From the NCBI GenBank assembly GCA_044892505.1, contig CM097883.1, positions 314,526,001 to 314,590,000 on the forward strand: 64,000 nucleotides of DNA, in the 5' to 3' direction. Under the pieces are notes generated by a model. That model had not been told where the DNA came from. It made no database searches and worked only from the letters and a program-made list of their open reading frames with translations. Position numbers and translations under genes: made by a program. How positions within the stretch are numbered: position 1 is the first letter of the stretch; each line of letters begins with the position of its first letter. Origin of the DNA: Schmidtea nova. Its lineage: Eukaryota. Shown here in pieces: positions 4,686 to 64,000 of this stretch.

Positions 4686-4700
4686 ATTTTCGATGACTCT

Positions 4701-5810: not shown

Positions 5811-5831
5811 AAAATATTTTGAAAAAAAATT

Positions 5832-5988
5832 TTTGGCGCGAAAAAAAAATTTGAAAAAAATTTTTGGCGCGAAAAAAAATTTTGAAAAAAAATTTTTATG
5901 ACTCATCGATGACTCATCGATGACTCATCAAAAAAAATTCTACCCCCCGGGGTTTTTGTTCTTTTTTTCCGCCCACGCAATGAGTCAT
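5832..5988. promoter_or_regulatory. Terminal cluster of 2 E2F sites, 4 AP-1/GCN4 sites and a GC box
   Basis: TTTGGCGCGAAA at 5832-5843 and 5863-5874. ATGACTCAT at 5898, 5909 and 5920. CCGCCC at 5969. ATGAGTCAT at 5980. Confidence 0.6.
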
Positions 5989-10538: not shown

Positions 10539-11059
10539 TTAATTCGTGATATTTCGGCACGAAACGATTTTTTCTTCACTGCAAGCAGACATAACAGTAA
10601 CCATGACTGTGTCACCGTTCTCGAATCGAGTTTTCAAATCCGCTTCCAATTCACCACCTGGTAGTTGGACATCTTCTTTAACTTCGCCTTTTTCTGCCAT
10701 CAAACTTACATAGCCATCAGTTGATATATCAACGAGTTGGTATTCAATTCTCTTCACAATTGGCATGTCTCTGTTAGCTGTTGATGGTGAGACATCTTCA
10801 CACTTTCTATCAGTAAATATATCAACAGCTGTTACATGGACTTTAGCTGAACCATGTTTACCTGTCTTGCAAGTACTCATATCTATGATTTTACAGGGTC
10901 GATCTTTTATCATTATGTATTGGCCTTTACGAAAAGCGCTCATTTGATTGGGAACCGTAAGAGAAGCTCCCGAATCGACATTTTCAAAAGTATCTTCGAA
11001 TTCTGACTAACGAAAAAATAATTTATATAAAAATTGACAACAAAGATAAACATTACCAT
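10539..11059 (-). CDS. eIF5A: Eukaryotic translation initiation factor 5A (156 aa; join 11059-11057, 11006-10539)
   Basis: Hypusine loop STCKTGKHGSAKVH, plus RPCKIIDMST and EYQLVDI. The ATG is followed by a 50-bp GT..AG intron (11056-11007), giving M-SEFEDTFENVDSGASLTVP in frame. Confidence 0.93.
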
Positions 11060-21902: not shown

Positions 21903-24682
21903 TCTCTTGGTTGGATGGATTGTTTGATTGTTGATTGTTTTCTCTTTAATTTTTTTGCCTGGGATGCTGTCAAGGTGATTAGGTTGACGATCATAAGGAT
22001 ACTGAGAGTGTTGCTTATGATGATGGTAATGATCCATCCTTCTTGATTGGGTAATTTGATTTTTATAACTCTTTTTATAGTCTCTTTGTTCTCCTTCGGT
22101 AATCTTCGGATTTCTTCGAATTTCTTGGATTTGTAGAATTTGGGTTTGATCGTCTTCATCGGGGTTGATCTTTGTTGAGTTTTTGTGATTAATGCGGTAG
22201 CATTCGTTCTATTTGTGATTACTGATAAGGTTTTTCTATTGTTTGGGTTGTATTTGGTGTTGTTACCATTAATATTATATTCAGAATTGTTGCGGTAACG
22301 AGTCGATTTTCCATGATTCTGTTTAATACATTTACATTGATACACTGTCCGTTCATTCTCCAGTACGATTTTATTTACATTAGCGATTTCTCATTATTTT
22401 ATACAAACGTCACTACATTCAGTCTTTCTCTTTGCATTCTTTATGTTGAATAACAATTTCACATTCTTGTTTTATTCCCTCAAGGTGGTTAATTATTGTT
22501 TTAATTTTCTAGTTTTGTTCTTTGACACATTTCTGTCTATTCTGATCCAATTTCTTGGCTGAAGCTACTTGTTGGTTCTTTCTTCTCTTCGTTTTCCTTT
22601 CCCATTTTTACGCAATGTTCGCCTGGTTTTTGTAGGTTTCGCTAATTTTCTGGTGTCTTGCTGCACTTTATTCTGTCATTCTTTATATTTTAAAGTTCTA
22701 TAATGTATTTATCCCTGGTGGTAATAATATGGTTATTCATTTGATTTACATTATCTGATATATATAATCATATTCTGACATCTATACCATGACTGTTCTT
22801 TTCCCTTCGTATTGTCTTGCGTCTCTTAATTCATTCCATTTCTTTTCGTATCAAATGTCGTTTTGGCTTCATTTTAAATTAGCTCGATTGTTCCGACCAT
22901 TTCAAATATTTTAGTCCGATTATCATATTGGCTTTTCACTTTACACGTACCGTGTCTAATGAGGTTTAATCTACCTTCGTATTCCGTTGTGGGCATCTTT
23001 GAATTTCTTAGTTTAATATAGTCGAGTTTCATGTTTTCTTTTTTGGATCTCTTTTATGGGTTGATTTACCCATTTCTGTTCTGACTTTCTTAGTGAAGAG
23101 GCTTCATTTTTCGTGTTCTGGGTTTTACAGTGGACGAGCTTCATGATTTTTTGATTTTTTGATTTTGTTTTCTTTTTGAAATACATGTACACTGAGTTTA
23201 CATACATCTGTTTTATTACTGACATATACATTTCATTAGCTTTTTCCACAAATATTAATACCATATTGATACATATACATTGAATTGATTTTGCTATTTA
23301 CAATTTATCCACTTTGTTTCTTTTTACACTTCACTCTATACCGCCTCATCGTTTAGGGTGAGAGCTTTTATGGGTTCCACATTGTTTGCAATCTCGACGT
23401 ATTCTGATGTCGACTTTTGATAGTTTCGATTTTATTTCTCTTTTAATCTATTTATTTCTTGTATTGCTGACATTAGTTGGTTTTGATATCTGGTTTTGAT
23501 ATCTGGTTATTATTTCTTTTTGTATAATGATTTATTGTTAATAAGTGAGAGCTAATCGCATCATATTAGTCAATTGTGTCTCTTTGCTTTTAGCTTCTTT
23601 CATGAAGATTTTTTGTATTCTCCTGAAATTGTTTACTTGCTTTTCCAGCTTGTTGATTGTGTCATTTTTCCTTTCGTTCACGTTCCTCAACTGGTTTTGG
23701 TTTCCTTGATTCGCGTGTTCCTTGTTGTTTTGATCTATTATCGCCTGATTCCTTGCTTCGGTACACTGGGATGCCAAATGTCCTCCTTGTCTGCATTGGT
23801 AACATATTCCTAAATGCTGACGAGTCTCTTTGATTCGTTCTCTCTTGGGATCGTTTTGAACAATTCGATTTTCGTAATGCCTTTCTACAAGTTTGTTATT
23901 ATTATTTATGAATTCAGATTGCTTCGTTTCTCTGGTTGTCTTTAGTTTCATTTCGTTCGCGATGTTGTCTTTCTGATTTTGGTTTTCCTGTTTATTTTTG
24001 AGATTCCAACAATTTCTTATCATGTGTCCTTTTTTCCCACAGTTTTAACATCTTTGACTTCTCAAAACCTTCTCTCCATGTCCTTTTGTTCCACATTGGG
24101 TGTAATTTTATTCTTGAAACAACTGCTTTCTAAGTGTCAATGTCTTTGGCAATTTTTACACTATTCGTCTCTTATGTAGATATACTATTCTTTTGTCTCT
24201 TGTTGGTTTTTCTTTTCTTTCTTTTAAGTTTGATTTCTTTCTTCTACGTTTCCTGTTTGTTCATTTATCTTCTCGACTTCTGGAATTTCGTTTTTTTCTG
24301 ACTGCTTGCTGTCTTTATTTTTCGTAACAAGTTGATTTATCGTTATATTTTCAATTTTTTCAATTATTTTGCTTTCAATTATTGCTTTTCTGTTTAGTTC
24401 TTTTAGTTACTCGTTTCTATTTTTCTAAGCATATTGATACTTGGATTATTCTTTTCTTATTTTTCCCATACTTCTTCTAACTTTTGTGCCCTATTACTTC
24501 CATTTGCCATTTCCAATTTATCTGCCTTTAGAAGTTCTTCATTTATCTTTCTCCAAAGTTCCTCGTTGACACAGGTCTGCAATCCTACCAATTTGCTCCA
24601 TCTGAACTTTTCTTCACGAACTTCCTTGATTGTTGGCTTTTGTGGTTCTGATTGACAGCTTGTCATCATATTGATTCTCCAT
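21903..24682 (+). repeat. 2,780-bp direct repeat, copy B
   Basis: See copy A. Confidence 0.95.
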
Positions 24683-48164: not shown

Positions 48165-48551
48165 GTGCTGGTGTGTTGGTTGGATTGACAACTGAGATCC
48201 TTATGATTTTATACGTTAGGGTGATCTCGCCAACATAAAAACATTCCCCCCGCTGACACCCATGATGTATCCCTAACTACTCATCATGTTGGTGCTGTGT
48301 CAACGTTGTGAAATGACAAGGCAGGTGAGCAACCTTTCGGCTACTATTCCCTTGTTTATTCACGGGTCCACCACTACCGATAGAAGGTGTCTGTGGCTTT
48401 CTTTCGGTCCCACTTATGCTCTTTTCTATTGTCCTAGGGTGATTCAATTTTATTACATCTGCGGCTTTAAATGAATCCGGGTTTTAGTTATATTCAATTC
48501 TCAGTCATTCCACAAACAAACAAGACAAGTCAAATCATTCGTTTTATACAT

Positions 48552-49115
48552 TTATTTATAGTTCAACAATACAGAGGGTCGTATTACATTTAGTAGTTCT
48601 TGCTCGGATAGACCACTGAGCAAGTCTACTTCGATTCCAAGGCGATCTGCATACGCGCGTCTCTCCCTACGCTTTTTCGCTCCCAAGCGATTCCGTCTCT
48701 TTGTTCGTTTCGAGCCTTCCAGAATGATTGGGGATGTTGGGGTAGTTGTGATTGGGATGGTTTCTATCTCCGTTTGGGTACTTGTTGTCATCGATATTGT
48801 GTCCACCCACCTATTAAAGGTGCTAGTCCTGATCACTGGGCGTAATTGCTCGGTGATAAACTCCTTGGTTGATGCCCTCAAGTAATTCGACAGCTCCATC
48901 TTTAGGGCTGCTACCTCCCTAGCTTGCTCGTCGATTGTTCGCTCCGCTCTGTATCGGGCTTGCAGGATAGTTTTAACCCTCTCTGGGTTGAACCACGTGG
49001 CTTTAATTCGCTGGTGCTCTTCGTTTAGTTGACGCAAGCGGTTTTCTAGGACTCGCGATCGTGCTTTATGCTCTTTGGCCTCTTGTTTGTAGTCCCTAGT
49101 CGGATGTTCACTCAT
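48552..49115 (-). CDS. Accessory ORF: coiled coil plus Arg/Lys-rich motif
   Basis: ATG 49115 preceded by TTTTACAGAG. Heptad-rich N-half and KRTKRRNRLGAKKRRERR. The ORF track extends to GTG 49172. Confidence 0.65.
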   Translation of the reverse strand: MSEHPTRDYKQEAKEHKARSRVLENRLRQLNEEHQRIKATWFNPERVKTILQARYRAERTIDEQAREVAALKMELSNYLRASTKEFITEQLRPVIRTSTFNRWVDTISMTTSTQTEIETIPITTTPTSPIILEGSKRTKRRNRLGAKKRRERRAYADRLGIEVDLLSGLSEQELLNVIRPSVLLNYK

Positions 49116-49306
49116 CTCTGTAAAATGTACAATTAATCGGGTTATGTATGGTTTGTCTGTTCTCTCAGTCACTATCTTTATTATTAAACCGGTGTTTCAC
49201 TCTCAGATCACTTCATGCATTCAAAGACATAACAAAACCCAAAAATTAATACATTTATTTTTAATACACCTCTCATCTTTCTTCGAATGATCGATTTCCT
49301 TGCGAT

Positions 49307-49942
49307 TTAGATGAAGGTTCGTAATTCCTGGTCGGCCGTGTTCTCGTCACGACGGATTCCACTTTCGTAGTAGAACTCCGGGGCGGGGCTCCAACTTAAC
49401 TTGTCCCGAAAGATGAATACCTCCCAGAGACGAAGGTCTTTGGGCTCGGGTTGTTGGTCCAACGAAACGCTTCCCGGCGCGTTTGAGTAGGCGAAGACTT
49501 CCCCAGTGTCGCCACACCGAGGCCTGTCTAGCAGCAGGTAACCGAGTTGATGTAGCTCTTTTCCGGACATCATTCCAGTACTTAGTAGCCAGCGGGGCTG
49601 CTGTGCTTCATCCACGAATTGGTAGAACCATCGGGGATTCTCCGGTTTGCTATGATCCGAGGAGGGTACCCAATCAGTATCTCCTTCCCACCGCAACTGT
49701 AGTCCAAACGCGCAAGCTGGGGTGCTAGCGGCTGAGCTCATGTGAGCCCTCATCCATCGTCGTAGGTGGCGACGTGATACTTCTGCGACCTTTCGAGGTG
49801 CTTCGTTCTCTCCTCTGATGTTTATGATCGTATTGGGTCGGATGACGGAGCGGGTGCGCCGTTTCTTACGAAGGATGGTGTCCTCTATCTTTATCGGGTG
49901 CGCGGTCATCGGCTTCTCTTGGAAATTCTCTAGTTTCACCAT
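49307..49942 (-). CDS. Accessory ORF, unknown function (basic N-terminus, Trp-rich globular C-terminus)
   Basis: 211-aa ATG-initiated ORF, GC-richer, with an acceptor-like TTCTTTAG upstream and AATAAA downstream. Confidence 0.65.
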   Translation of the reverse strand: MVKLENFQEKPMTAHPIKIEDTILRKKRRTRSVIRPNTIINIRGENEAPRKVAEVSRRHLRRWMRAHMSSAASTPACAFGLQLRWEGDTDWVPSSDHSKPENPRWFYQFVDEAQQPRWLLSTGMMSGKELHQLGYLLLDRPRCGDTGEVFAYSNAPGSVSLDQQPEPKDLRLWEVFIFRDKLSWSPAPEFYYESGIRRDENTADQELRTFI

Positions 49943-51014
49943 AGTATTTCTAAAGAAGATGGTTGTTTGTTAACTATGGATTCTATGGTATAACGGGCCT
50001 ATTTATATTAGTCAACCCACCCGTTATACTTAATTTTCAACACTCATGTGTAACCACTCAGCTTTAACAGTTTTTATTTATCGATAATACTATTTAATCA
50101 CATTCAATCTCATCAGTCGTTTTCAATTACTTCCTCATCTAACCAGCAATGATCATACCATGTCGGGTAATTCTCGTAAGTACCTGTGATCCGTACACGC
50201 TGGGGTTCATCATTTTATCAGTTCTCAATGCCTGTGATTTATTTATCATCTCTCTTGGCGATTAAACGCGTCTGACAGAGGTTATCGATTACCCTTAACC
50301 CTTGATACTAGGTTCACTATGCCCGAACTCGTAAGCGCTAATGTTGACATATACCTACCCTCGTCGTCACCTAATTCATCGGCACTAATATTATTCACTA
50401 CACGTCTATCCCTCGTCTAGACTTCACCGCGATATATGTCCTTCCTATAAAACGGGTTTCACTTTGCGCTCGTTTACGACTACTAGTTTATACTCGATAC
50501 CCTATCATCGTGATGTATAACGTTTACATTAGATCATCTCTACCTTGATTTCGTTCATGATCATTAGGTCTTACTCGATACCCTATGTGCATTTAACCCC
50601 TTCCGCTTTCCAAATATTTAATACACCTATGGTCCCGCCGCATCAGCACCTCACAACCGAAAGATTGTGTTGCGCTGAGAGGCCCCAAGAATCCGTCAGG
50701 CTGTTAGGCCTCCGGAAAACCTTATGGATTTTAATATGGTTATAAACAATTATGAGGGTTTAAATACATCAATAACATAACTCCAAATTACCTTTTATTT
50801 TCGCTTCGAAATCGGTATTACAACGTTTTCAGTAAGTCACAAGAGCTTACACTTGGTAAAAAATGACATATTCAAATACTGATTTTACTTCAGTATTTAT
50901 ACTGAACCGGTGTTGTTGGTTAGCCAATCAGCATCGAGTATGTGTGTTTGATCATTATTCTGTGTTGCCGGCTTTTTGCTGCCTAACTTAACTCGCCGAT
51001 TTGTTTGGTTAATC

Positions 51015-51320
51015 ATGCGGTAAGTTTATTTTTTGTACGATTTAATTTTTATTTGATTTTGCTTTAGGTCTTCGGTGACATCCGCCCACGCGCTGTCATA
51101 TTCCAATTTTTTCTGCTTCGCATGAGTGAGTTTTGAAGATTTTTGTTGTTTTGATTAATATGTTATTTCTTTTAGATGTTGCCGCCTATTTTGTTACGCT
51201 TTGGTGTTGGTAATTTATTTTGTTGTTATTCTGTATTTAATTTATTTTATTGATTGTACATTATTTTCAGATGCTGCTCGATTTGGCTGGCCCAACATCA
51301 CTCGGGGTCCCCTAAAATTG
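51015..51320 (+). ncRNA. Candidate spliced antisense transcript (three GT-AG introns of 48, 50 and 61 bp)
   Basis: Introns at 51020-51067, 51126-51175 and 51210-51270 with GTAAGT/GTGAGT/GTAATT donors and T-rich ..TAG/CAG acceptors. Only very short ORFs. Confidence 0.5.
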
Positions 51321-51499
51321 CGTCCCGCAATTACATGCATATACCTACCTCAACATACATAAAAAGTTCGTGACAGAATTCACATTCAAAACCACATAAG
51401 GTGGTAGCTTTCATACGCATTTATACAAAGTCACACATTGTCATTGTCGTGTTTTTATTGTCACACAGTTCAATGTTTCTGGCTCATAGGGGTTGATTT

Positions 51500-52024
51500 T
51501 CAGGTCCTTTCACTGGTTGACTGCATTTCGTATCGGGCTTGGATTTGTCGTAGATGACTTCTCATCCTTTGTTGGGTTTTTGCTTCTCTTTTGGCGCATC
51601 TACACATTATCGTTTGTTGTTGTTTGAGGCTTCTGATTCGGTATAGGGTATACGTAATCACGATGATCAGGATGATTGTCAGTATTGTCATTGTGACTAT
51701 TCCCACGATGATCCATCTGTTTCGGATTTCGGATTCGATTTGGGTTTGACCTTTGATTGGCTTTAGGTGATCTTGAAAGGTTTTATGGATTTCTCGGATC
51801 TTCTCGATTTGATCGAATAAGGTTTGTAAGGGTTTGCGATGATCATGACTGATTCGCATTTGTCGGATTAATTGTTTCAAGTCTTCTCTGACTTCGTTTA
51901 ATTGTTTTTCGATCTCCTGGGATATCTCATTTGACGGGGTTCTTTGGATTTCGGTTGTCGTACAGTTCGTGATTGCTGCTGTTAACATAATAGTTAGGAT
52001 TGGTAGGGTTTTGAGCCAGTTCAT
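51500..52024 (-). CDS. Accessory type I membrane protein (signal peptide, coiled coil, TM, basic tail)
   Basis: MNWLKTLPILTIMLTAAITNC signal, heptad ectodomain, TM WIIVGIVTMTILTIILIIVITYTLY. Confidence 0.75.
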   Translation of the reverse strand: MNWLKTLPILTIMLTAAITNCTTTEIQRTPSNEISQEIEKQLNEVREDLKQLIRQMRISHDHRKPLQTLFDQIEKIREIHKTFQDHLKPIKGQTQIESEIRNRWIIVGIVTMTILTIILIIVITYTLYRIRSLKQQQTIMCRCAKREAKTQQRMRSHLRQIQARYEMQSTSERT

Positions 52025-52097
52025 TTCTGATTATTCCACTGATTAATACATGTTACATCGATTTGTACATTTTTATACACGGATTTTTCGCCTCTTT

Positions 52098-53258
52098 TTA
52101 CACATCCGTCTCCTCTGGTTCATGGAACCCTTCATCTTGGAGTTCCATTGGTGGTGGTGGTATAAACGGTAACCACACCACTCTGCTTCGCCACATTGCA
52201 ATTTCATCTTGATACGTTCGAGAGATTTGTATCTCTTCGTCTAACAGATACTCCATGTAGTCTGATTGTTCGCTCAGAGTTTCAATTTGTCTTTCCATCT
52301 CTTCCACTTTTCTCTTCAGGGCTTCTACTTCTGTTGGTTCGGTTTCTATTTCTCGGGTTTCTTTCTCTGCTTTCAGGGTTATTATCTGCTGTTTCAGTTC
52401 CTCATTTTCTTTCGTCAAGTTCGTTATATTTTCCTCATAAGCTCGGTTTGATTCCGCATGCCTTTCTTTCACTGCTTTCAACTCCATTTTCTTTTGGGTC
52501 ACCACCCCTTGATAACCATTTACATCTCTTTCCAGGCTTTCTTTTTCCCTGATCAACTTTTGTCTTTCCGCTTCCTCTTTTTGTCTAATGCCTCGCATTT
52601 CTCCATTTATCATCTGTATTTGCCATTGCGTTTTCTTTAGTTCCTTTGCTTGCTCTCGAATAAATCGTTGCCGTTTTCGACTCCATTCTTTGTTTGCTTG
52701 TTCTTGTCGCTTTCTCTGTTCCAATTCCTCTTTCAATTCGTCTATCTCTTGATACAGTTTCCAATCTTCGCTGTATGCTGTCTTTCTGATTATCTCTTTG
52801 GCTTCTTTATACACTCGTTTAGACTCCATCTTCCAATGTCTCGCTTGAGCCTTGATAGCTAGTATTTTTACCTCCATCTTTTCCTCTTGTTTCTCCCTCT
52901 CTTCTCTTCGCGTTTTCATCATATTTTTATAATGTTCTGCTTGTTTCCTCATCAACTGATAGACATCTTCTATCTTCTGTCGACTTCGTACATTCGTTCC
53001 TTTTAGCTTCTCTATTTGTGTTGTCAGTTGTACTATCTCTTTATTCACTTCCTCGAGTTCTAGTTGGTATAACTCCATTCGTCTCTCGCATTTTAGTTTC
53101 TCGTAGTAATTATTTGTCATCACTTCGTGTAATTCTCTGGTTCTTTGTTCTACTTCCATTTTACATCTCCTTTCGATTTCTCTTTCTATTGTTTCTTGTT
53201 CGTTCAACATCTCGCTTCTCGTTTCATCTTCGATTCCATGTTCATTTGCGTTTTCCAT
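52098..53258 (-). CDS. Accessory long coiled-coil (SMC/myosin-tail-like) protein
   Basis: 386 aa of continuous E/K/R-rich heptads with a C-terminal PPPP. Confidence 0.75.
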   Translation of the reverse strand: MENANEHGIEDETRSEMLNEQETIEREIERRCKMEVEQRTRELHEVMTNNYYEKLKCERRMELYQLELEEVNKEIVQLTTQIEKLKGTNVRSRQKIEDVYQLMRKQAEHYKNMMKTRREEREKQEEKMEVKILAIKAQARHWKMESKRVYKEAKEIIRKTAYSEDWKLYQEIDELKEELEQRKRQEQANKEWSRKRQRFIREQAKELKKTQWQIQMINGEMRGIRQKEEAERQKLIREKESLERDVNGYQGVVTQKKMELKAVKERHAESNRAYEENITNLTKENEELKQQIITLKAEKETREIETEPTEVEALKRKVEEMERQIETLSEQSDYMEYLLDEEIQISRTYQDEIAMWRSRVVWLPFIPPPPMELQDEGFHEPEETDV

Positions 53259-53347
53259 TCTGTAATTTACAAATTTACACTTGTTATACTATATGTTTAT
53301 TGTTGTCGTCGATTTTTACACTTTATTTACAGGGTCGTTCACTCTGA

Positions 53348-54760
53348 CTACTCTAACCATCCTTTCGTTGACTTCGTGTTCATCACTGTTATACTTGCTT
53401 TCTTCTCGATTTCCAATTCTACGTATAGGTTGTCGTCGTACAACATTTCCCACATTGTTTGGTGTGGTATGAATTTTGGTTCTCCAGTCGCTAATGAACA
53501 TTCTGTGGTTGGTCTTTTGTAAGCTTCGTGCTTACCATCAATTTTGAATATTCTCGCTATTGTTTCTTTCGAGTTTCTCACTCTCATTATAGCCTTTGTT
53601 TCTAGTGGCCATTCTAATATGTCGTCGTAACCACCTTTACACAACGCAAAGAATAATGACACATGCGTTTCCTTTCCTGATCCATCTCCATTTGGATAAA
53701 TTCTCATCCGGACTTTGTATCCGTTTTTCCACAGATAGAATGGTGGACTTGTTACCGACACTTGACTTCCTGCTTTTGCTGCTGTGAACTTTTCGTTGAA
53801 GTTCTTGATTTTCCATATATATGGTGCAACAGGTAAACTCTCGATATCCTCCGCATCTCGTATCCACATTTGATGTCGCACGTTTACTTCTTTTACCAAT
53901 GTCTCTATGACTTTGATTTTCTCCATCATTTTCTCTCTGGTGAGCTCGAATTGCTCTCTCGTTTCCAGTAATAACTCCGTCATTATCCTCTGAGATTCAA
54001 TTTCTTTTCCCAGTTTCTGTATGGTTTGTTCCATTCCGTTCAAATTTTCTGTTAGCATCTCGGCGTGTTGTACCGTTTCCGTTTCCAAATGCTCTTTCAT
54101 CTCTTTGTTCGTTTTCTTTACTGCACATCCTTGTTTACTCCATACGCACTTTCTTGGTCTTGATTCGCATTGTTCCCAGTGTTCTCTCAACATCACTTCT
54201 TCTCCGGTTCCGCAATTACTTGGACAAATTCCTCTGAATTTTCCACACACTTTCTCTTCTGCTACGTTGAGATGTTCATTTTCGATTACTTCTCTCGTCT
54301 CTCTTTGTTCGCAGTATTGACACTCTATTATCTCTGCTTTGCACTCATCCTTGTGCTTTTTCGACTGCTTGATGGTTATCGTCTGTTGACACTTTTCACA
54401 TATCGCTTTCTTGTTTTCGCATTTTCCTAGATGTTGTCTTAGCTCGATTATTTGTCCTTTCCATTCACAGGGTTGGTTTATACATTCTGTTTTTATCTTC
54501 CAGATCTCCTTTTGTATTGCTTTGTCGGGTTTTGTCTCGTTGATCAGTAGTTTATCGTCGCACTCTGGGCACTTTCTTGTCTCACTTTCACTGATTATTT
54601 GTAGTATACACTTGGTGCACATCCTGCATCCACATTCCGTTTGTCTCGGTTTTAACATTAAATTTTTACACTTTACACACGTCACATTTACTCCCCATTG
54701 TCGATTCTCTCCTCTTAGAATCTCGATTGTTTGGTAATCTGCTTCGCTTTCTGCTCTCAT
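53348..54760 (-). CDS. TRAF: TNF-receptor-associated factor (RING, TRAF zinc fingers, coiled coil, MATH), intronless
   Basis: CVKC..CGCRMCTKC..CPEC RING, several CxxC..H..C fingers, and MATH YIWKIKNF..SPPFY..GYKVRMRIYPNGDGSGKETHVSLFF..GGYDDILEWP. Confidence 0.93.
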   Translation of the reverse strand: MRAESEADYQTIEILRGENRQWGVNVTCVKCKNLMLKPRQTECGCRMCTKCILQIISESETRKCPECDDKLLINETKPDKAIQKEIWKIKTECINQPCEWKGQIIELRQHLGKCENKKAICEKCQQTITIKQSKKHKDECKAEIIECQYCEQRETREVIENEHLNVAEEKVCGKFRGICPSNCGTGEEVMLREHWEQCESRPRKCVWSKQGCAVKKTNKEMKEHLETETVQHAEMLTENLNGMEQTIQKLGKEIESQRIMTELLLETREQFELTREKMMEKIKVIETLVKEVNVRHQMWIRDAEDIESLPVAPYIWKIKNFNEKFTAAKAGSQVSVTSPPFYLWKNGYKVRMRIYPNGDGSGKETHVSLFFALCKGGYDDILEWPLETKAIMRVRNSKETIARIFKIDGKHEAYKRPTTECSLATGEPKFIPHQTMWEMLYDDNLYVELEIEKKASITVMNTKSTKGWLE

Positions 54761-54849
54761 TCTACAACAATATTTACATCAATTTCCCCATATTTTTGAT
54801 TTTTCTGGTTCTTTATTTACACGTATTTACACAATTTTCCGCTTATTCA

Positions 54850-55200
54850 CTATACATCCTCCGTTGAATCTGGCTCTGGATACACGTCTATCTCATTTAC
54901 AATCCAGCTCGTCCAACTATCCGGTATCTCCTCCTCTTCATGTCTCGTTAATCGATCAATTTCCTCTGCTTGCCAGTTGTTCACTTCATTTAATGTTCGG
55001 TTCTCGTTCTGTAATTCGTTTATCTGTATTTGTTGGATCTCGATTTTGTTCATTGCTTCGAAATTACAGTTATAACTCTCGGTTAATAATTGCGTTTTGG
55101 CCGTCAACTGGCTCTGTAATTCATTTACTGTTCTGGCTAGCAGGTCGCATTGCACTTTCCATCTCGTCATCATCAACATCTCGATATTTTCTTGGTTCAT
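54850..55200 (-). CDS. Accessory small coiled-coil protein
   Basis: 116-aa ATG ORF, Q/E/N-rich heptads, acidic end. Confidence 0.65.
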   Translation of the reverse strand: MNQENIEMLMMTRWKVQCDLLARTVNELQSQLTAKTQLLTESYNCNFEAMNKIEIQQIQINELQNENRTLNEVNNWQAEEIDRLTRHEEEEIPDSWTSWIVNEIDVYPEPDSTEDV

Positions 55201-55326
55201 TGTTTTTCTAGATTATATACATCATTCTCTTTTTTTTCTGTTTTTATGTTTTATAATATTTATACCCACACGTATACGGTTATGCATTGGTTTTTTACAC
55301 TACTATTTACACTCATATTCCACCCT

Positions 55327-58300
55327 CTATACAATCACCACGGGTTTTCCTTCGTACAGTTCTTCGTCCTCGATCTGTACCCACATCTCTTCATGTCTTG
55401 ATCGTCTTTTCAGTTCTTCTCGTACTTCTTTTGGTAGTTTTATGTTATAATTCATGACCTTTACGTCTGGCCATTTTACTGCTATGGTCTTATTTCTCAT
55501 GCCATATCTCCAACATACTATCATGACCATTATCAGTGGAATACACGCTATGAATACTCCCATGCTGATTAATCCCATTATTGTTTTCCCAATGCTCATC
55601 TTCGGAGTTTCACTTTGGTTTGTCATCACGCCATATTGACCTTTCCATTCTGCTTCCCATTGTTCATATTGTTGTTGTCTCTGTCTGACTTCTTCGATCA
55701 CTTTCTCGGGTTCCCATCTTTCTTGTTGATTTTGTAGTATTTCCTCCGTCTCTGTTTGTTCTCTTTTCTGACTCAATTCTCGGAATTCTAACTTGCGGGT
55801 TCCCCCTTTTATCGTTATGTTCCTTGGCGTGTAATAGGTTTCGCACCTTTCTTGTTGATTTCCTTGTGCGTCTACTTCTTCGATTGCACACACTTCGTAT
55901 TCTGCGTTTGTTTTCAACCTCCTCATTTCTACCTCGATTATTTCCCTTTTGTCATTTGATGTCTTTTGACAGTTTCGTGGAGACTCTCTCATACTGTTTG
56001 GCATTAATGTCCAACAGATTTCTAGGACCTTTTTATGGATCTTCCATATTATCAGAGTCGTTGATTCCGGTTCGTTTTTTATTGACGTCCCTTCTGTTGT
56101 CTGTTGAGTTCCTTGACTGTTGGTTGTCGTGGTTCTTCTTGACTTTCTTTTCCTTTGTCGACTTCCTCCCATTTCGATCGTTCTTGTACCGTTAATTTGC
56201 TCTGGCGTCTTGTACAGTCTGCACTCCAGGCTTCTTTGTATTACTTCTCTTATTCTTCGGATTACGCAAATTTCGTAAGCTTGTCCGACTTCGAATCCAT
56301 TTAGTTGAAACGGGATTCCTCGTTCTCTCGTTCTGCATTGCGGTATTATGATGTTGGTCGGTATTCCGATGTATTTTCTCCAACACATCCCAATTGTTCT
56401 CCGACCAATGTTTTTTATCTCCACGGTTACTACTTCATTCGCAATCATTTCTTGATCTTGTTTCTTTCTTTTTGGGAACTCAATTATCTCCTTTGCTTGG
56501 AACACTTTACACTCGCTTGTTCCTGGTCTGTTTCCGTTTGCTGCTTTTTCCATGAGGCATAGTTCACATGTTTTCTCTGTTTCCATTTCAGTTATCTCGA
56601 TTTCCTCGTTTGTCTCTGCCTCTCGACTTTCTCTTGTTTCGCTGATTCCAATTACCTCATTGTTTCGTCCCCAACATCTTCCGTTCGTTGTTCGTTGGTC
56701 TTGGATATTTACTAACGTCATCACGCTGATATCTATGTCCTCTATGATTCTCTTAATGAGGATTAATATTAATGCTACACATATCAATTCTGGTTGGAAT
56801 GTTAATTTGCCCGCTGGATTTTTGGTTATTCTTTCTTTCTCTGTTCGGTTTCTGATTCCCTCTTCTGCTTCGGTTTGATTCTCCCCTTTCTCTGGTTCCA
56901 CTTCTGTTCTTCTCGTTGTCTCTTCGCTTCTTTTCTCAATCCATTTCTGTATCTTCAGCGCTTCTGTTGCTTTGTATAGTTGACATGCAGTTACTTGAGG
57001 TGCTTTTGGTTCTCCTCTCTGCTTTACTGCGCATATTATGTATGACTTTTCTTTCTCCAACCCTTTGATTTGGATGACGTCTCGCTTCAAATCTGACAAT
57101 ATACACTTCAGCGTATCGTTTTTCCCCAGGTTTTCTTTCCAGCATATTCTTTCGTATACTTCATTTCCTCTAATTATCTCTAGCGTGACGTATTGTTTCT
57201 TGGCTTCTCCTTGTCCGATGATTGTTAACAATATCGCAATACACAACATTTCCGGTCTTAAAAGTAGACTTCCTGTTCGTTTTCCATAGTTCGTACTTTC
57301 GTCTTTTGTTCCTCTGTTTTCTCGTTCTTCGGCTTCTCCTTTCTTGTCGTTTCTCGTTGGCTTCGGTTCTTCTTGTCTTTCTTTTTCATTATCCTCCGTT
57401 CTTTTGTTGTCATTGTCTTCGTTGTTCTCTTCGTTGTTACTTTTGTCGTCGAAGTCTTTGTAACCACCCCCTGGTCCTTTGAAAATGTCGTCCTCGACAT
57501 TAATTTCTTCAATCAATCTTTCATACGCTTGAACCGCGAGTGTGCTAGACTCGAATTCACGTATTTCCATATCCTTAGATGGTTCTATGTCTTCTAGTCT
57601 ACTTTGCTTGATTGCTCCTTTGGCATTTGCCCATTCATTCACATATTTTCTGAACAAGTCTTTCCATCTTCCCGTTCGTTCCTGTTCCTTTGGATTGTTC
57701 GTGAATTTCAAATCTCTTCTCTTCAGGAATTCTTCAACTATCTCTGGCTTTTTGTGTCTTAATAACGCGCTTCTGATACACCAATTCTGATTCTGTTCCA
57801 TATGGTCATTGATCTTGAACGTTGGTTCCTTGGTTATCGGATTCACCCATGTTAGTAATGCTCTCGTTTTCTCTATGTCGTGTATCATTACTGTTAGACT
57901 GAAGTTCTTTACGTTATTCGCCAGGTATTCGATATCGTCTTGCTTCTTGATGGACTTTATGAACTTGATCATCTCGAAGTTGTTCCACTGTATTGCGATG
58001 TCTATGATGGAATTATTCTTTCCATTTTTCCCTTCGATTTTTGCTCCTGCTTCGTATAACTCGTTTAGCACTTTGCAGTTCGTCTTCTTCCTCGCTGCGA
58101 TTATCATGATTGTGTCTCCGTTATCATCAACCGTGTTCATGTCTGCTTCGCATTTGACCATCGCTTTCGTTATTTCCAGCACTTCGTTTTCTTTCTTTCG
58201 ACGTAATGCCCAGTGTATCGGTAGTCTTCCATCCTTTGATAAAAGGAATGCTACTGGCATTTGGTTCTTGATCGTTTCTATGTCACTCTCGTTATAATCC

Positions 58301-61300
58301 CCTTCTGCATATCTGTGCACTTTCTCTGTAATTGTTCCTAGTATTTCCAACGAATTTTTATTCTCTTTGAATTCCGATAATTTTTCCTGTGCTTTTGCTA
58401 CGATTGCGTCTAATCTCTCTTGATAATCGGCTTTTGCATTGAACAACACTGCTTTGCTTCTTATTCGTGTTTGCATCTGTTTCATCCGTTGGTCTTGATA
58501 TACTGCTTGTCTGAAGAATTGTCCATAATTCAATGCTTCCACCAGCTCTTTATATCGCTTGCTTATTTCTTTGTGCTGCTTTTGGATGTCATAGAAATGT
58601 TCGAAACTCATATCCGGATTCCATTGCTTATCGCCCCATTTCTTGATTAATCCGAATAATTCTTTCTTTCTGTCTTCCAACTTGTATTCTCTTGGGTTCT
58701 CGCTGACCCGTAGCGTATCTCTCGCTATCAACACTGCAAGTGTTTTTGGATCGTATGTTACTTCTAGTAGATGTTTCAGTAACGCATTTTCCCCCCTTGT
58801 GAATACTTCATTACAATTTACGACCCACGAATCTCCTTCTGGTCGTTTCCACTTTAGCAGTATCCTCCAGGTTTTACTGTTCTTTACCTCGATTGCTTGT
58901 TTCATAATCGATCTTCTGGTTAGTTCATCGATTTCCCACGTGGCATTCTCTGTGATATACTTCAGTATTCGGTGATTCGCTCTATCAATTGCATGATTCA
59001 AGAACGTTCGTCCTTCTTTATCTTTTGTCATCCAATTCGATCTGGTGTTTCCGAATAGCTTGATTATTTCATCGTTTCTTCCGTGAATCGTCATCATCAT
59101 AAGTGGAGTAATTCCTTCCCAGTTCACTTTGTCAATTTCTCCTCCACCTTCGAGTATCATTTCTACGATCTCCTTCACTTTCTCGTTTCCACTGTGCTTG
59201 ATTGCATTATGTAACGCGGTATTACCATCTTTGTCTTGTAGATTCAATGTCTGAGGGATCTCCTCTAGCAGCGTCCTTGTTATTGGATGTGCTGTTCTAT
59301 CCTTAGCATACTCCATTACATTCTTTCGAACTTCTGACAGTATATTGAAATCGAACCACCATTTCCATTCTGGTATGATTTCTCTGGTCCTCTTTGCCAG
59401 TTCTTTGATGTCTATTGCTTCTCTTCGATTGTCTTCTAGACTTGTTTGCGGCTTTTGTTGTACTCGCAACATACTGATTCTCGCCGTCTGTGATCTTGTC
59501 ATTACCCGTTTCTCTGGTGATAGAGTTGCTGTATTTGGTATTTTCCTGCATCGACATGCATTCACGTATATTGGTCTTACCAATGGATTGTTCACCAATC
59601 GTACTCGCACATTGTTTTCGTTTACGGTTGTTATTTCGTATGGCCCTTTGCCTGGTCGTTGGAGTTTCTTGACCGTACCGGGTATTATCTCTGGTGTTTC
59701 GATTATCACCCAATCTCCAACTTTTAAATCATGTGCTTTCACGTTCCTTTTCTGATCATGTAGATCCTTATAACTTTCTTGATAGAACTTGATGTTTAGT
59801 TCCGCCGTTTTCCAGATCTCTTGCATTCTTTCTTTGAACTTCGTCACGTAATCGTCAACCTCCATGTACTGTGATAATGGTGGTTGGTATTCTAAATCGA
59901 TCGGTAAGTTGCAATCTCTTCCGTACATCAGTTGAAATGGACTTAGCTTTGTTGCCGCATGTATTGACATTCTATATGCCATCAAACACAAGTTGATATA
60001 CTCGTCCCAGTCAGTCTGATGTTTACTGACGTAATTCGACAACATGCGTATCAATGTTCCATTGAACCTTTCCGTTTGACCGTTCGTTTGTGGATGGTAT
60101 GGGGATGTTCGTAATTTCGCAATTCGGAAGTAATTCGTAACTTCGTCTAATATTTCACTCATGAAATTCGTTCCTTGATCCGTTAGGATTTTCTTTGGTG
60201 TTCCGTATCTGCAGCATATTTCTTCCACCAATATTCTCGCGACTGTTTTCGCCTTTTGATCCGGTATTGCGAATGCTTCTGGGAACTTTGTTAGATAGTC
60301 CGTGACTACTAATATGTATTGATTTCCCTTCAAACTTTCCGGCAATGGTCCAACTACATCCATTGCTATTGTTGCCATTGGTTCTGCAGGTATTGGCATA
60401 GGTTTTAGTGGTGTTTTCCACTTTGCTCCGACGTTCTTTCTTGTCGCACAGGTTAAGCAGTTCTTTATCCATTCTTTCACATCATCTTCCATGGTTGGCC
60501 AAAAATACTTTTGTCTCAATCTCCCGATTGTCTTTTTCGCTGACATGTGTCCGCCTAATTTTCCGTCATGATATTGAGTCATGATTTCCTTTCGCCTATT
60601 CGCAGGTAAGCACATCAATCTCCGTTCTCCATCTTGTATCAATAACCATCCTTTTTCCATCACATATCTATGTTGATATTTCTGCATATGTTCGCGTAAC
60701 GTTTGGTTCTTGCCGAATATTTCCATTTCCCTTTCTTTCAGATACTTGCTGATCAATCCCAACTCCTCATCTTCGAGTTGATCTTTCCTTAATTCGCTGA
60801 AATCCAAATCTTCCGCTATTAATGCACATATTTTTTGAGCATTCAGGTTCACCAATTCTGGAAATGTAAACCTTGACATGCAATCCGCGTTTGCATTTGC
60901 TTTTCCTGCTTTAAACTTTATGAATGGCGAGTATTCTTGTAACTGCATTGCCCAACGCATCAATCTACTTGATGATTCTTTATGTTGGCCTAACCATACC
61001 AATGGTTGATGATCCGTCGTGATATATATTTCATGACCCCACAGCAGGTACTTGAAATGCTTGATTGCTAATATTATCGCATAGGCTTCTCTTTCTGTGA
61101 CTGAGTAATTCCTTTCATGTTTTCTGAACGTTCGACTATAATATCCGATTACTCTCTCTTTGCCTTCTTCATCAAATTGGCCTAGTACTGCTCCTGCTGC
61201 GTATCCACTTGCATCTGTTGCCAACAAAAATGGCTTCTTAAAATCTGGGTGGACCAATATTGGTGCTGTAATCAGCTTGTCCCGTAATGTCTCAAATGCT

Positions 61301-64000
61301 GCTTGCTGTTCTGTTCCCCACACAAACGATACATCTTGTCTTACCAATTCTTGCATTGGCTTTGATATTCCTACATAGTCCTTGATAAACTTTCGATAAT
61401 ATCCACACAATCCCAAAAATTCTTGTATTTGAGTCACTGTCTTTGGTGGTGGACATTCTTTGACTTTTTCGATATTCCTTGGGTCTGGTTCTTTTCCTTT
61501 TGCTGATACAATGTGACCTAAGAATGTCACTTTTTCTTTTGCCCAATCGCACTTTGACGGCTTTAATTTCAGTTTCCACTGTCTCAATTTCACGAACACA
61601 TTTCTGATGTCTTGCAAGTGATCTTCGAATGTTGCGGAGTAGATCAATAGATCGTCGATATACACCATGCATTGTTTTATGCCATGTGTTACGAAATTCA
61701 TGCATCTCTGGAATGATGCTGGCGCGTTTGTTAACCCAAACGGCATTTTCTTGAATTGGTACAGATCTCGTCCGATTGTAAATGCTGTCTTTTCTTTATC
61801 CTCATCTTTCATTTTGATCTGCCAATATCCGCTTTTTAAATCTAGTGACGTGAAATAAGCTGCTCCTTGTAACGTCAACAACATTTCGTTTATGTCTGGC
61901 AGTGGGTACGTATCTCTTTTCGTAACTGCGTTCAATCGTCTGTAATCGATACAGAATCTCTGAGTTCCATCCTTCTTTTTCACCATCACCACTGGGAATT
62001 GCCAGGGTGAGCAACTAGGTTCGATGACCTCTGCATCTAACATCTTTTGTACCTCTTCTTCTGCTACTGCTTTTTGAGCTTCTGCCAGTTTATATGGTCT
62101 TAATGCGATTGGCGTTTCGTCCGTCAACGGTATCGTGTGCAATGTTACATCACATGTTCCTAAATCCAAATCTGATGCTGCGAATATATCTTTATATTCC
62201 ATCAACAGTTTCTGTAACTGTTCTTTTTGTCGTTCGTCTAACAACACACTGTCGATTTTCCATGGTAATTCGTCTTTGCTTTTCTCGTTCTTGTCTGGTA
62301 TTTCGATTTCGGACATGGGTGTCAATTTACCCAATCTCTCATTCTCATATATTATCTTGTCCTCTTCGTCGAAGTTCACCAGATTGATCGGTATTTCTCC
62401 TTCTTGGTTTATCGTGACCAATTCTCTTGCCATTGGTAATTCTTTCTTCACTTCGAACTTCTTACTTGGTTCGAATACCATATCTCCTTTTATTGTCGAA
62501 TCGATCTTGACGTAGCACATCATTTCGTGTCTCGCTGGCACTACTATTTGTTCCGCACTTGCCACTTTAACTTTCATTCTGCAGATTTTTCCTGTTCTGT
62601 CTTTTAGCTTCATTGCTCCTAGATCAATTACGATTTCCTTGAACAGGTCTGGCATCAGGTCAGTTCCAATAATACATGGTACACTCAGCGATGGTATTAC
62701 AGCGATGTACGTGTTGATCTCTGCACCTCGATGCTTAATTTTTACAAACCATCTTCCGGCTACTTCTACTGTCTCCTGACTGCACGCGATTACATGTACA
62801 TTCGTTTTCTCAATTTCTCCTTGGTTTTTCTCGGGTATATAGTTAATGTCGATTGCCGAAATATTCGCGCCTGTATCGATCATAGCTTCAATTTCTCTGC
62901 CATTTATTTCTACGGTTGTTGTTAAGATCGGTCCCATATTTGTGGACATAACCGCTATCGTGTGCGTGTCTTCCAACGAGTTTACGCTTCCGCCTCGTTT
63001 TACTTTGCATCCTTCGGGAATTATCGGGTATATACTTGTCATCGGCATCATCTGCCTCATATTCGGCTTCGCTTTATATATCGGTTCGTTATACATTGAT
63101 TGGGGTGGAGCACTGTATCTCCAATTCTCAACCGCACTCTTTTCGGTATATTGTGGAATCTGGTTTATATTCGCTTGTCCTCCTCGATCGTCATCATCAT
63201 CTTCATCATTGCTTGAATCATCTTGCGTTCGATATCCTCTCACTCTTTCCCATAATCCTTTCCTTTCCTTCTTCAGTTGTCGCCTTGCTTGTTCGTCTTG
63301 TATTATCTTTTTGAATTTCCTTCCAACATCTTCATTTGTTCCTTTCATTTTCGCAAGTATCTTCAACAACCTCTTTATTCGATGTATGTCTTTTGAGTGT
63401 CCGTGTAACACCATCGTTTTCGCAAGGAATGGTAAAAACCCTACTACCATTTTCCAATTCACTTTCTTTTCTCTCTTGTAGATGTCGAAACACGCTAACA
63501 TTTGAGTTATTATCACTCTGACGATTTGTATTATCAGTATAACCCCCAGTATTCCAGCCATCATTTGTCCAAATATCAGGAATCTTCCCCACATTGCCTT
63601 CATCATATTTTCTGTGGCTTTCTTGAAATGTGCCGGTGACAACAACAGTTCGTAATTCGGTCCTTCTCGATAATTCGTTCCTCCCGTTATTGTTACGATA
63701 TTTGACAGTAATGCTTCTCTTCTTGCCGGGAATAATATATTCTGCCTTGCCGCTTCTAAATCTTTTGGACTATAGATTCCGTTGTTTGAGACATCTACGT
63801 CACTGAACTGTCTATCCTTTGACAACTGCATTAGCTCAAATTCTCTTGGTGCTAATACTTCAGTTCTTCCTGGGAACATAACCCATTTGCCATCTGGCTT
63901 CTGATAAAGCGGTCCGTACGCATTACTACAGTTGAATGGATTTGGTTCAAAACTTGGTGGATTGATGATTCTCGTCACCGGTTGAACGTATCGTACTTTT
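55327..64000 (-). CDS. Polyprotein: env-like glycoprotein C-terminus/TM, PR, RT, RNase H, IN, ankyrin repeats, FN3-like modules, TM
   Basis: Open to the window edge (KVRYVQPVTRII..). AMIDTGANIS (62877), FCIDYRRLN, VYIDDLL (61662), LATDASGY, YHDGKLGGH..CLTC, MDVVGPL/TDQGTNF/ERFNGTL, QDKDGNTALHNA and C-terminal TM IMGLISMGVFIACIPLIMVMIVCW. Confidence 0.92.
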   Translation of the reverse strand, partial: KVRYVQPVTRIINPPSFEPNPFNCSNAYGPLYQKPDGKWVMFPGRTEVLAPREFELMQLSKDRQFSDVDVSNNGIYSPKDLEAARQNILFPARREALLSNIVTITGGTNYREGPNYELLLSPAHFKKATENMMKAMWGRFLIFGQMMAGILGVILIIQIVRVIITQMLACFDIYKREKKVNWKMVVGFLPFLAKTMVLHGHSKDIHRIKRLLKILAKMKGTNEDVGRKFKKIIQDEQARRQLKKERKGLWERVRGYRTQDDSSNDEDDDDDRGGQANINQIPQYTEKSAVENWRYSAPPQSMYNEPIYKAKPNMRQMMPMTSIYPIIPEGCKVKRGGSVNSLEDTHTIAVMSTNMGPILTTTVEINGREIEAMIDTGANISAIDINYIPEKNQGEIEKTNVHVIACSQETVEVAGRWFVKIKHRGAEINTYIAVIPSLSVPCIIGTDLMPDLFKEIVIDLGAMKLKDRTGKICRMKVKVASAEQIVVPARHEMMCYVKIDSTIKGDMVFEPSKKFEVKKELPMARELVTINQEGEIPINLVNFDEEDKIIYENERLGKLTPMSEIEIPDKNEKSKDELPWKIDSVLLDERQKEQLQKLLMEYKDIFAASDLDLGTCDVTLHTIPLTDETPIALRPYKLAEAQKAVAEEEVQKMLDAEVIEPSCSPWQFPVVMVKKKDGTQRFCIDYRRLNAVTKRDTYPLPDINEMLLTLQGAAYFTSLDLKSGYWQIKMKDEDKEKTAFTIGRDLYQFKKMPFGLTNAPASFQRCMNFVTHGIKQCMVYIDDLLIYSATFEDHLQDIRNVFVKLRQWKLKLKPSKCDWAKEKVTFLGHIVSAKGKEPDPRNIEKVKECPPPKTVTQIQEFLGLCGYYRKFIKDYVGISKPMQELVRQDVSFVWGTEQQAAFETLRDKLITAPILVHPDFKKPFLLATDASGYAAGAVLGQFDEEGKERVIGYYSRTFRKHERNYSVTEREAYAIILAIKHFKYLLWGHEIYITTDHQPLVWLGQHKESSSRLMRWAMQLQEYSPFIKFKAGKANANADCMSRFTFPELVNLNAQKICALIAEDLDFSELRKDQLEDEELGLISKYLKEREMEIFGKNQTLREHMQKYQHRYVMEKGWLLIQDGERRLMCLPANRRKEIMTQYHDGKLGGHMSAKKTIGRLRQKYFWPTMEDDVKEWIKNCLTCATRKNVGAKWKTPLKPMPIPAEPMATIAMDVVGPLPESLKGNQYILVVTDYLTKFPEAFAIPDQKAKTVARILVEEICCRYGTPKKILTDQGTNFMSEILDEVTNYFRIAKLRTSPYHPQTNGQTERFNGTLIRMLSNYVSKHQTDWDEYINLCLMAYRMSIHAATKLSPFQLMYGRDCNLPIDLEYQPPLSQYMEVDDYVTKFKERMQEIWKTAELNIKFYQESYKDLHDQKRNVKAHDLKVGDWVIIETPEIIPGTVKKLQRPGKGPYEITTVNENNVRVRLVNNPLVRPIYVNACRCRKIPNTATLSPEKRVMTRSQTARISMLRVQQKPQTSLEDNRREAIDIKELAKRTREIIPEWKWWFDFNILSEVRKNVMEYAKDRTAHPITRTLLEEIPQTLNLQDKDGNTALHNAIKHSGNEKVKEIVEMILEGGGEIDKVNWEGITPLMMMTIHGRNDEIIKLFGNTRSNWMTKDKEGRTFLNHAIDRANHRILKYITENATWEIDELTRRSIMKQAIEVKNSKTWRILLKWKRPEGDSWVVNCNEVFTRGENALLKHLLEVTYDPKTLAVLIARDTLRVSENPREYKLEDRKKELFGLIKKWGDKQWNPDMSFEHFYDIQKQHKEISKRYKELVEALNYGQFFRQAVYQDQRMKQMQTRIRSKAVLFNAKADYQERLDAIVAKAQEKLSEFKENKNSLEILGTITEKVHRYAEGDYNESDIETIKNQMPVAFLLSKDGRLPIHWALRRKKENEVLEITKAMVKCEADMNTVDDNGDTIMIIAARKKTNCKVLNELYEAGAKIEGKNGKNNSIIDIAIQWNNFEMIKFIKSIKKQDDIEYLANNVKNFSLTVMIHDIEKTRALLTWVNPITKEPTFKINDHMEQNQNWCIRSALLRHKKPEIVEEFLKRRDLKFTNNPKEQERTGRWKDLFRKYVNEWANAKGAIKQSRLEDIEPSKDMEIREFESSTLAVQAYERLIEEINVEDDIFKGPGGGYKDFDDKSNNEENNEDNDNKRTEDNEKERQEEPKPTRNDKKGEAEERENRGTKDESTNYGKRTGSLLLRPEMLCIAILLTIIGQGEAKKQYVTLEIIRGNEVYERICWKENLGKNDTLKCILSDLKRDVIQIKGLEKEKSYIICAVKQRGEPKAPQVTACQLYKATEALKIQKWIEKRSEETTRRTEVEPEKGENQTEAEEGIRNRTEKERITKNPAGKLTFQPELICVALILILIKRIIEDIDISVMTLVNIQDQRTTNGRCWGRNNEVIGISETRESREAETNEEIEITEMETEKTCELCLMEKAANGNRPGTSECKVFQAKEIIEFPKRKKQDQEMIANEVVTVEIKNIGRRTIGMCWRKYIGIPTNIIIPQCRTRERGIPFQLNGFEVGQAYEICVIRRIREVIQRSLECRLYKTPEQINGTRTIEMGGSRQRKRKSRRTTTTNSQGTQQTTEGTSIKNEPESTTLIIWKIHKKVLEICWTLMPNSMRESPRNCQKTSNDKREIIEVEMRRLKTNAEYEVCAIEEVDAQGNQQERCETYYTPRNITIKGGTRKLEFRELSQKREQTETEEILQNQQERWEPEKVIEEVRQRQQQYEQWEAEWKGQYGVMTNQSETPKMSIGKTIMGLISMGVFIACIPLIMVMIVCWRYGMRNKTIAVKWPDVKVMNYNIKLPKEVREELKRRSRHEEMWVQIEDEELYEGKPVVIV

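Follow-up and report, generated by a model that had tools for sequence, protein, structure and literature searches.

Each of the six accessory open reading frames (ORFs) of a giant retrotransposon of Schmidtea nova starts directly behind a candidate splice acceptor, and for one of these ORFs genomic copies show a cis join to a leader exon that lies in the long terminal repeat (LTR). The ORFs are located on the minus strand of a 64,000-nt stretch of genomic DNA (GCA_044892505.1, contig CM097883.1, positions 314,526,001 to 314,590,000; hereafter the window), and the 29,126-bp LTR element to which they belong was delimited from the window together with adjacent DNA. Splicing of the LTR leader to the first of two ORFs within the LTR, LTRa, takes place in cis, because two elements of the genome miss exactly the GT-AG piece between donor and acceptor. 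For the four ORFs between the LTRs, cis-splicing of the same leader may be the main route of expression, to which we assign a probability of about 0.5 on the basis of DNA comparisons. The splicing evidence was obtained by seeking, among the DNA copies in the 1.25-Gb genome, those that had been made from spliced RNA.

Cis-splicing of the LTR leader to LTRa

The 3' LTR of the element (48166..51297; this and all other features of the element are on the minus strand) was defined by comparison of the LTR pair and carries a reverse CCAAT motif and a TATA box (50894..50929, TATA at 50901), from which transcription is predicted to start near position 50870. About 108 nt after the TATA box lies the leader splice donor AATAAAAG/GTAATT (50786..50799, GT at 50791-50790; the slash marks the splice point), which is unchanged in 19 of 20 copies while the surrounding leader varies. 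The 20th copy, L025, is the spliced one: the last matching base lies immediately ahead of GTAATT, and the alignment is taken up again directly behind the TTTCAG found before LTRa in L028, the closest relative of L025. The equivalent intron of the window comprises 842 nt between the leader donor and the LTRa acceptor (49950..50791). A second element, which has a different leader variant, is without the same donor-to-LTRa piece in both of its LTRs (99.9% identical), and a genome search with the joint of L025 revealed that other copies break at the same point.

A strict scan detected 13 donor sites in the whole element, among which the LTR donor alone was shown to be conserved and used. GGTRA donors were found in none of the 13 spacers upstream of accessory ORFs, nor within 200 nt before LTRa or before the RING ORF of a sister family (family D; the family of the window's element is termed family A). 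In both families the LTR TATA box lies within a short inverted repeat (window 50888-50909; L080:2720-2750).

Acceptor-like sites before the accessory ORFs

In the order of transcription, the six ORFs are o1 (116 aa, 54850..55200), a TRAF-like ORF (470 aa, 53348..54760) with RING, zinc finger and MATH domains according to Pfam, a charged ORF of 386 aa (52098..53258), an ORF of 174 aa (51500..52024), LTRa (211 aa, 49307..49942) and LTRb (187 aa, 48552..49115). No Pfam family scored over the cut-off for o1, the 174-aa ORF and LTRa, and the 386-aa ORF and LTRb had no Pfam match. The 386-aa protein is likely to be a coiled coil, and the hydrophobic N-terminus and the single internal hydrophobic stretch of the 174-aa protein are likely to represent a signal peptide and a membrane anchor. 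The gaps before the four internal ORFs measure 126, 89, 89 and 73 nt, in agreement with the approximately 70-130 nt that had been estimated from the sequence; 1557 nt precede LTRa, and 191 nt separate LTRa from LTRb. Being situated inside the LTR, LTRa (start at 49942) and LTRb (start at 49115) are present at both ends of the element, and thus they are not simply the fifth and sixth genes of a 3' unit.

The sequence-only reading of this DNA had listed a YAG 1-7 nt before the ATG of all six accessory ORFs. The strings and their coordinates are correct (the YAGs end at 55208, 54762, 53260, 52027, 49950 and 49118), and the pattern exceeds chance (p 8e-5 in shuffles of the six upstream regions). 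Elsewhere on the sense strand of the element, 121 of 681 other ATGs have a YAG at this distance. Family D has a YAG 0-7 nt before seven of its eight accessory starts (p 1.7e-5), with the proviso that one of these starts is a post hoc choice of the second methionine, so that the count would otherwise be six of eight, and that the YAG of the eighth start is 18 nt away. The 12 nt upstream of 15 candidate AGs contain on average 5.7 T, compared with 2.6 for 1199 other YAGs of this A-rich strand (p 7e-9). A chance pattern in A-rich sequence, in which roughly one ATG in five has a nearby YAG, is refuted by the probabilities obtained in and out of sample together with the T-rich tracts, the conservation and the exact losses of introns, and we consider it next to impossible.

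The candidate TAG acceptor 7 nt before o1 (55208..55210) is TAG in 63 of 64 family A loci, the remaining locus not being covered; the acceptor of the 386-aa ORF, a CAG 1 nt ahead of the ATG (53260..53262), is CAG in 60 and TAG in 2 of the 64 (2 not covered); and the candidate acceptor of the 174-aa ORF, a CAG 2 nt ahead of the ATG (52027..52029), is kept in 59 (5 not covered). Together with the TAG acceptor 1 nt before the TRAF-like ORF (54764-54762), these internal sites are intact wherever they are covered, except at a joint in L174 described below, and CAG changes only to TAG. It should be noted that this conservation has little power, because most of the loci are 94-96% identical. In four copies of 77-88% identity the middles of the spacers diverge, and the YAG and a YTGAY motif are kept. 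LTRa has a YAG no more than 9 nt from its ATG in 16 of the 17 copies that hold it, the 17th being the intron-less copy, and LTRb has a CAG 2 nt before its ATG in all 17 copies that hold it, at DNA identities of 73-92%. Outside the window, the RING ORF of the element has a CAG 3 nt before its ATG in 17 of 17 covered copies. The acceptors of o1 and of the 174-aa ORF are the weakest-looking.

Intron losses in the spacers

Three further genomic copies have lost a spacer that ends at a predicted acceptor, one of them exactly and two with one changed base. The exact case is L035 of family D: ahead of its counterpart to the 386-aa ORF, a 105-nt GTAAAG...TTTCAG piece has disappeared whose ends bear no repeat. 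In the window's element, the spacer between o1 and the TRAF-like ORF can be read as a 94-nt GT-AG intron (GTATAG...TTGTAG, 54762..54855) in which a branch-like YTGAY, kept in subfamilies of 77-88% identity, precedes the AG by about 20 nt. These 94 nt are lost in L174 of family A, in which the last exon codon is GAG instead of the GAT of 35 other copies (T>G), and L153 of family D displays the same one-base pattern at another acceptor. We infer that the T>G change in L174 and L153 gave rise to a strong donor and that splicing then connected this donor with the nearest acceptor; alternatively, both may be deletions that lie one base off the splice sites. The spacer donors are weak and shift between copies.

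A predicted acceptor forms the end of four out of 17 distinct deletions of at least 15 nt (p about 1e-6 if each has a chance of 0.5%, a generous value applied to a tally made by hand). This holds for none of the other 13, several large ones of which join repeats of 10-17 nt, nor for an 18th, a gap of 45 nt in L179. Spacer losses are rare (1 of 64 family A loci and 2 of 46 family D loci). A further 24 family A and 16 family D loci yielded no new case. Six large deletions in four short elements were not located at GT-AG. The intron-less copies (the LTR joint, L035, L174 and L153) support the proposal that the AGs are splice acceptors.

A possible single LTR leader for many acceptors, and its alternatives

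In the scheme that we favour, a single short LTR leader exon would be cis-spliced to the acceptors, one acceptor per mRNA. The leader of the 5' LTR would be spliced not only to LTRa but also to LTRb, to the RING ORF and, over 21-25 kb, to the four internal ORFs; the unspliced RNA would serve as the genome and as the gag-pol message, and translation of each mRNA would begin at its first ATG, which follows the joint by 1-9 nt. Some of the mRNAs would probably end at the AATAAA behind their own stop codon. The spacer-intron losses would represent rare joins to weak local donors that reveal active acceptors, and acceptors left without a donor may use the host spliced leader (SL) as a side route. 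A cis donor has been reported to out-compete the spliced leader, and a tapeworm LTR leader to be spliced to a former trans-splice site (PMC4558846); by this donor-first competition, cis-splicing would be favoured as long as the leader donor is still on the RNA. The routes via the cis leader, the SL and local promoters are not mutually exclusive.

Several observations weigh against this scheme. The LTR subtype that displays the exact joint is not that of the window, the joint has an AG in common at both ends, and the two intron-less LTR elements may go back to a single event. One base change is needed to explain each of two of the three spacer losses. A leader joined to o1, the TRAF-like, the 386-aa or the 174-aa ORF was found in no copy by genome searches that were narrow (their positive control found only 58 exact copies, and one pattern missed L174); such DNA copies are expected to be absent, because RNA spliced in this way loses the primer site. 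One of the searches for a leader joint had four matches, namely L025 and three unrelated sequences, another had a single match, which was a point mutant, and another had none. In addition, the leader would have to skip several acceptors that lie closer to it, and the want of strong local donors suits SL operons, as described in PMC12582326, equally well. Three features of the spacers complete this side of the balance: AATAAA is not enriched over shuffled sequence (3 versus 2.0 expected in family A, 9 versus 12.5 in family D), it has been lost from the spacer between the TRAF-like and the 386-aa ORF in one diverged copy, and an unexplained TGTAAA motif recurs on the sense strand only (9 versus 0.4 expected in family A).

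The sequence-only reading had offered two mechanisms, cis-splicing of one leader and SL trans-splicing of a polycistronic RNA. The former has gained direct DNA support for the LTRa join, whereas the latter has none, and the separate poly(A) sites that were part of the proposal are candidates. In an SL-resolved operon, a long RNA would be cut at each poly(A) signal and the host SL trans-spliced to the next AG, with the LTR ORFs alone using the cis leader. Spacers of 73-126 nt fit the 100-nt peak of flatworm operon spacing (PMC8629364) and the 300-bp limit given in PMC12582326. The spacers contain no strong donor, UUNYAG is matched by three of the six acceptors, and five of the six have a T at -5. 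Moreover, the Gypsy element Cer1 is reported to have an SL1-capped spliced mRNA (PMC3315495), and an operon would be the more economical arrangement for the seven to eight genes in a row in family D.

On the other hand, no SL joint was seen in the DNA copies (no search was aimed at the host SL gene), all joints detected in DNA are in cis, there is a strong donor upstream within the same unit, and AATAAA is not enriched. Acceptors without an upstream cis donor would be a sign of trans-splicing; LTRa is not of this kind, and the internal acceptors, whose spacers are without a strong donor, are on rare occasions joined in cis to weak spacer donors. Flatworm SL sites are reported to be used for cis-splicing as well in 66% of cases on average, least so inside operons (PMC12582326). 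Flatworm SLs end in AUG (PMC7346339), and of 16 sites in families A and D, 5 have an AG-to-ATG distance divisible by three, as by chance, so that nothing suggests the use of an SL AUG. We regard the operon as a tentative alternative. It would make the element a retrotransposon with a true SL operon, in which four to eight accessory genes (for TRAF, IAP and membrane proteins) are released from the genomic RNA by the SL and internal poly(A) cuts. This is possible, and it would link the genes for apoptosis and signalling that the element carries to cells in which SL machinery is abundant.

As to the poly(A) signals, AATAAA does follow five of the six accessory stop codons, as had been noticed, but not above chance in the A-rich spacers; none follows the stop of the 386-aa ORF, nor that of pol. 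The signals after LTRa (49254..49259) and LTRb (48556-48551) are each accompanied by a GT-rich stretch and are likely poly(A) sites, and further AATAAA are found at 54817, 53327, 53301 and 51459. As AATAAA is not enriched over shuffles, separate poly(A) sites are putative. The TGTAAA motif occurs 17 times (1.3 expected) in the spacers of family D, and its reverse complement was never seen in the spacers of families A and D; one site of this type acted as the donor in L035. Two leads are that TGTAAA may provide weak U1 sites that restrain premature cleavage, or PUF sites. A role of TGTA as a CFIm enhancer of polyadenylation was also considered and is doubtful, given that the planarian poly(A) signals described in PMC5068929 have no UGUA upstream.

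Production of the accessory proteins from local units, in which a small promoter would drive each ORF separately and a short 5' intron beginning at a T/GTAAA donor of the spacer may or may not be present, is unlikely. In its favour are two more distant families, B and C, which are 37% identical in pol: there, the ORF behind pol comes with a promoter-like stretch made up of a reverse CCAAT and a TATA-like box, with a G/GTAATT donor and, about 115 nt on, a TTTTAG acceptor, and the wider family thus uses more than one expression scheme. The intron loss of L035 starts at a spacer T/GTAAAG, and the pol-o1 spacer contains a CCAAT and TATAAATA. However, an internal promoter before o1 was rejected, since these motifs are not conserved: the CCAAT is altered in both covering copies of 77-78% identity, and the TATA is deleted in one and altered in the other. 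The other three internal spacers are without CCAAT and two of them without TATA, the spacer donors are weak and mobile between copies, and a promoter, a start site and an intron would hardly fit into 73-89 nt. Within the LTR, a second copy of TATAAATA that lies about 60 nt ahead of the LTRa start codon (50000..50007) is kept in most LTR subtypes, and this TATA-like box may give LTRa a promoter of its own.

A polycistronic message, with the spacers spliced out or read through and the downstream ORFs reached by re-initiation or leaky scanning, is very improbable. L035 and L153 do join the 3' end of an upstream ORF to the next ORF in cis, but such joined copies are as rare as stated above, and the loss in L174 removes the stop codon of o1 and results in an out-of-frame product of 146 aa, which looks like damage. 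In addition, re-initiation after long ORFs is inefficient.

The element and its relatives

The window holds the 3' half of the giant element, from position 48166 on. Its two LTRs of 3132 bp are 99.87% identical, the 5' LTR being 26 kb upstream of the 3' one, and are bordered by a 4-bp target duplication. Between them, Pfam and the LTR comparison place protease, reverse transcriptase (RT), RNase H and integrase in the Gypsy order; in addition, Pfam detected zinc knuckles, a Monjiviricetes fusion protein, ankyrin repeats, the RING ORF before gag (outside the window) and the TRAF-like ORF after pol. The fusion protein (PF24664) shares one ORF with protease and RT and lies ahead of pol; the 3' part of this env-pol polyprotein ORF (fusion glycoprotein, protease, RT, RNase H, integrase, ankyrin) occupies 55327..64000 and runs past the window. 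Gag (1245 aa) and env-pol (3620 aa) are in separate frames about 300 nt apart (L011:2189-2485, this copy alone having been checked). A purine-rich stretch before the 3' LTR (51298..51316) is likely to be the polypurine tract. Pfam found no BIR match in the ORFs of the window's element and, with Pfam profiles only, no match to a BCL2-like region. Tandem repeats before gag (L011:7060-7480) bear donor-like AAG/GTGAG sites and small hairpins.

With the TRAF-like ORF as a DNA query, 777 candidate copies were retrieved, the best 40 of which are 96-100% identical; the RT region as a protein query found giant relatives at 46-55%. Family D was reached through a Pfam BIR search (1295 candidates) and is arranged as head-to-tail units of about 21.2 kb. 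The copies read (L079-L083, L088-L090) have TRAF and BIR-RING ORFs and are without RT and integrase. The family D ORFs that correspond to o1, the TRAF-like and the 386-aa ORF are 39%, 35% and 29% identical to them in protein sequence.

The LTRs themselves are variable. Their middle (window 48500-50577 compared with L014-L033) varies between 68% and 92% identity, compared with 95% for the internal region, LTRa subtypes fall to 61% amino-acid identity, and there are LTR variants without the ORFs, which suggests fast turnover or recombination. Three of 20 copies have a short LTR that contains neither LTRa nor LTRb. The association of the LTR ORFs with the halves of the element is at best r 0.30-0.36 (3' half), with one value of r 0.46 in the opposite direction, among 36 uncorrected tests. 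Families A and D have an identical primer-binding site, presumably for tRNA-Pro, though their LTRs otherwise do not align, apart from the LTR-end motifs CCTTCYATCGGTAG...TGGACCC and a GT-rich stretch (window 48166-48420; L080:6180-6430), which are possibly a conserved RNA structure. The 4.3-kb LTR of family D contains a 93-nt stretch (L080:5205-5297) with the edges TTTTTCAG and AG/GTAAGG that is a possible internal leader exon.

Comparison with known systems

In complex retroviruses and in the adenovirus major late unit, one promoter and one leader donor serve an acceptor before each accessory ORF, and the unspliced RNA is the genome. Splicing of accessory genes is known from complex retroviruses, and the kind of element is known as well. 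Here, in contrast, the carrier is a Gypsy retrotransposon, the distances between leader and ORF reach up to 25 kb, and ORFs lie inside the LTR; the candidate poly(A) signals after most ORFs resemble adenovirus, unlike retroviruses.

The window's element is a Burro-like giant Gypsy as judged by its match to the published description. The Burro/GYPSM1 elements of planarians are described as about 30 kb long, with a zinc-knuckle gag, ankyrin, TRAF/MATH and accessory ORFs, and with a mononegavirus-like fusion protein ahead of protease-RT-RNase H-integrase, Burro1 having one gag-env-pol polyprotein (PMC6431247). The present element agrees in its size, zinc-knuckle gag, fusion protein ahead of pol, ankyrin, TRAF/MATH and accessory ORFs. 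It differs in that TRAF has an ORF to itself, one of four in a row on the 3' side of pol, that two ORFs lie in the LTR, and that BIR, present in the sister family D, is absent from it. In the passages of the literature that our search returned, no account of the mode of expression of the Burro accessory ORFs was found. Burro elements are said to carry apoptosis and signalling genes, and one of them is reported to aid planarian regeneration (as cited in PMC13465017).

Cer1 of C. elegans, for which an unspliced 8-kb RNA and spliced RNA with and without SL1 have been described (PMC3315495), is a Gypsy element too, but instead of several separate accessory genes in a row it has a single spliced product, which shares gag sequence. 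Flatworm SL operons likewise consist of same-strand genes about 100 nt apart with a UUNYAG-like acceptor before the start (PMC12582326, PMC8629364), their spacing peaking at 100 bp (PMC8629364), and their acceptors are often common to cis- and trans-splicing (PMC12582326). They comprise host genes with demonstrated SL joints, whereas the present case is a mobile element with a strong cis donor upstream. The solo LTRs of the tapeworm ta-TRIM elements also provide a leader that is cis-spliced to an acceptor just before a coding gene, but these are tiny non-coding elements that act on host genes (PMC4558846).

The exact coordinates of donor and acceptors make the question of how the element is expressed answerable from existing RNA data. 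Either outcome would be notable: a Gypsy element would have retrovirus-like splicing that spans 25 kb, or a mobile element would contain an SL operon. Apart from this, introns lost from genomic copies can record the splicing of a retroelement.

Other features of the window

An identical zinc-knuckle ORF of 161 aa is present twice (14278-14763 and 23538-24023) and flanks an ORF of 1257 aa that encodes a non-LTR-type RT (16458-20231). An eIF5A gene at 10539-10943 is represented by a 134-aa ORF without the usual N-terminus, and upstream of it the DNA points to additional coding sequence that follows a T-rich acceptor. Small ORFs at 292-1472 and 4675-5901 resemble those inserted in L082 and L077, a Maverick-type ATPase region, and are accompanied by a long 15-nt tandem repeat.

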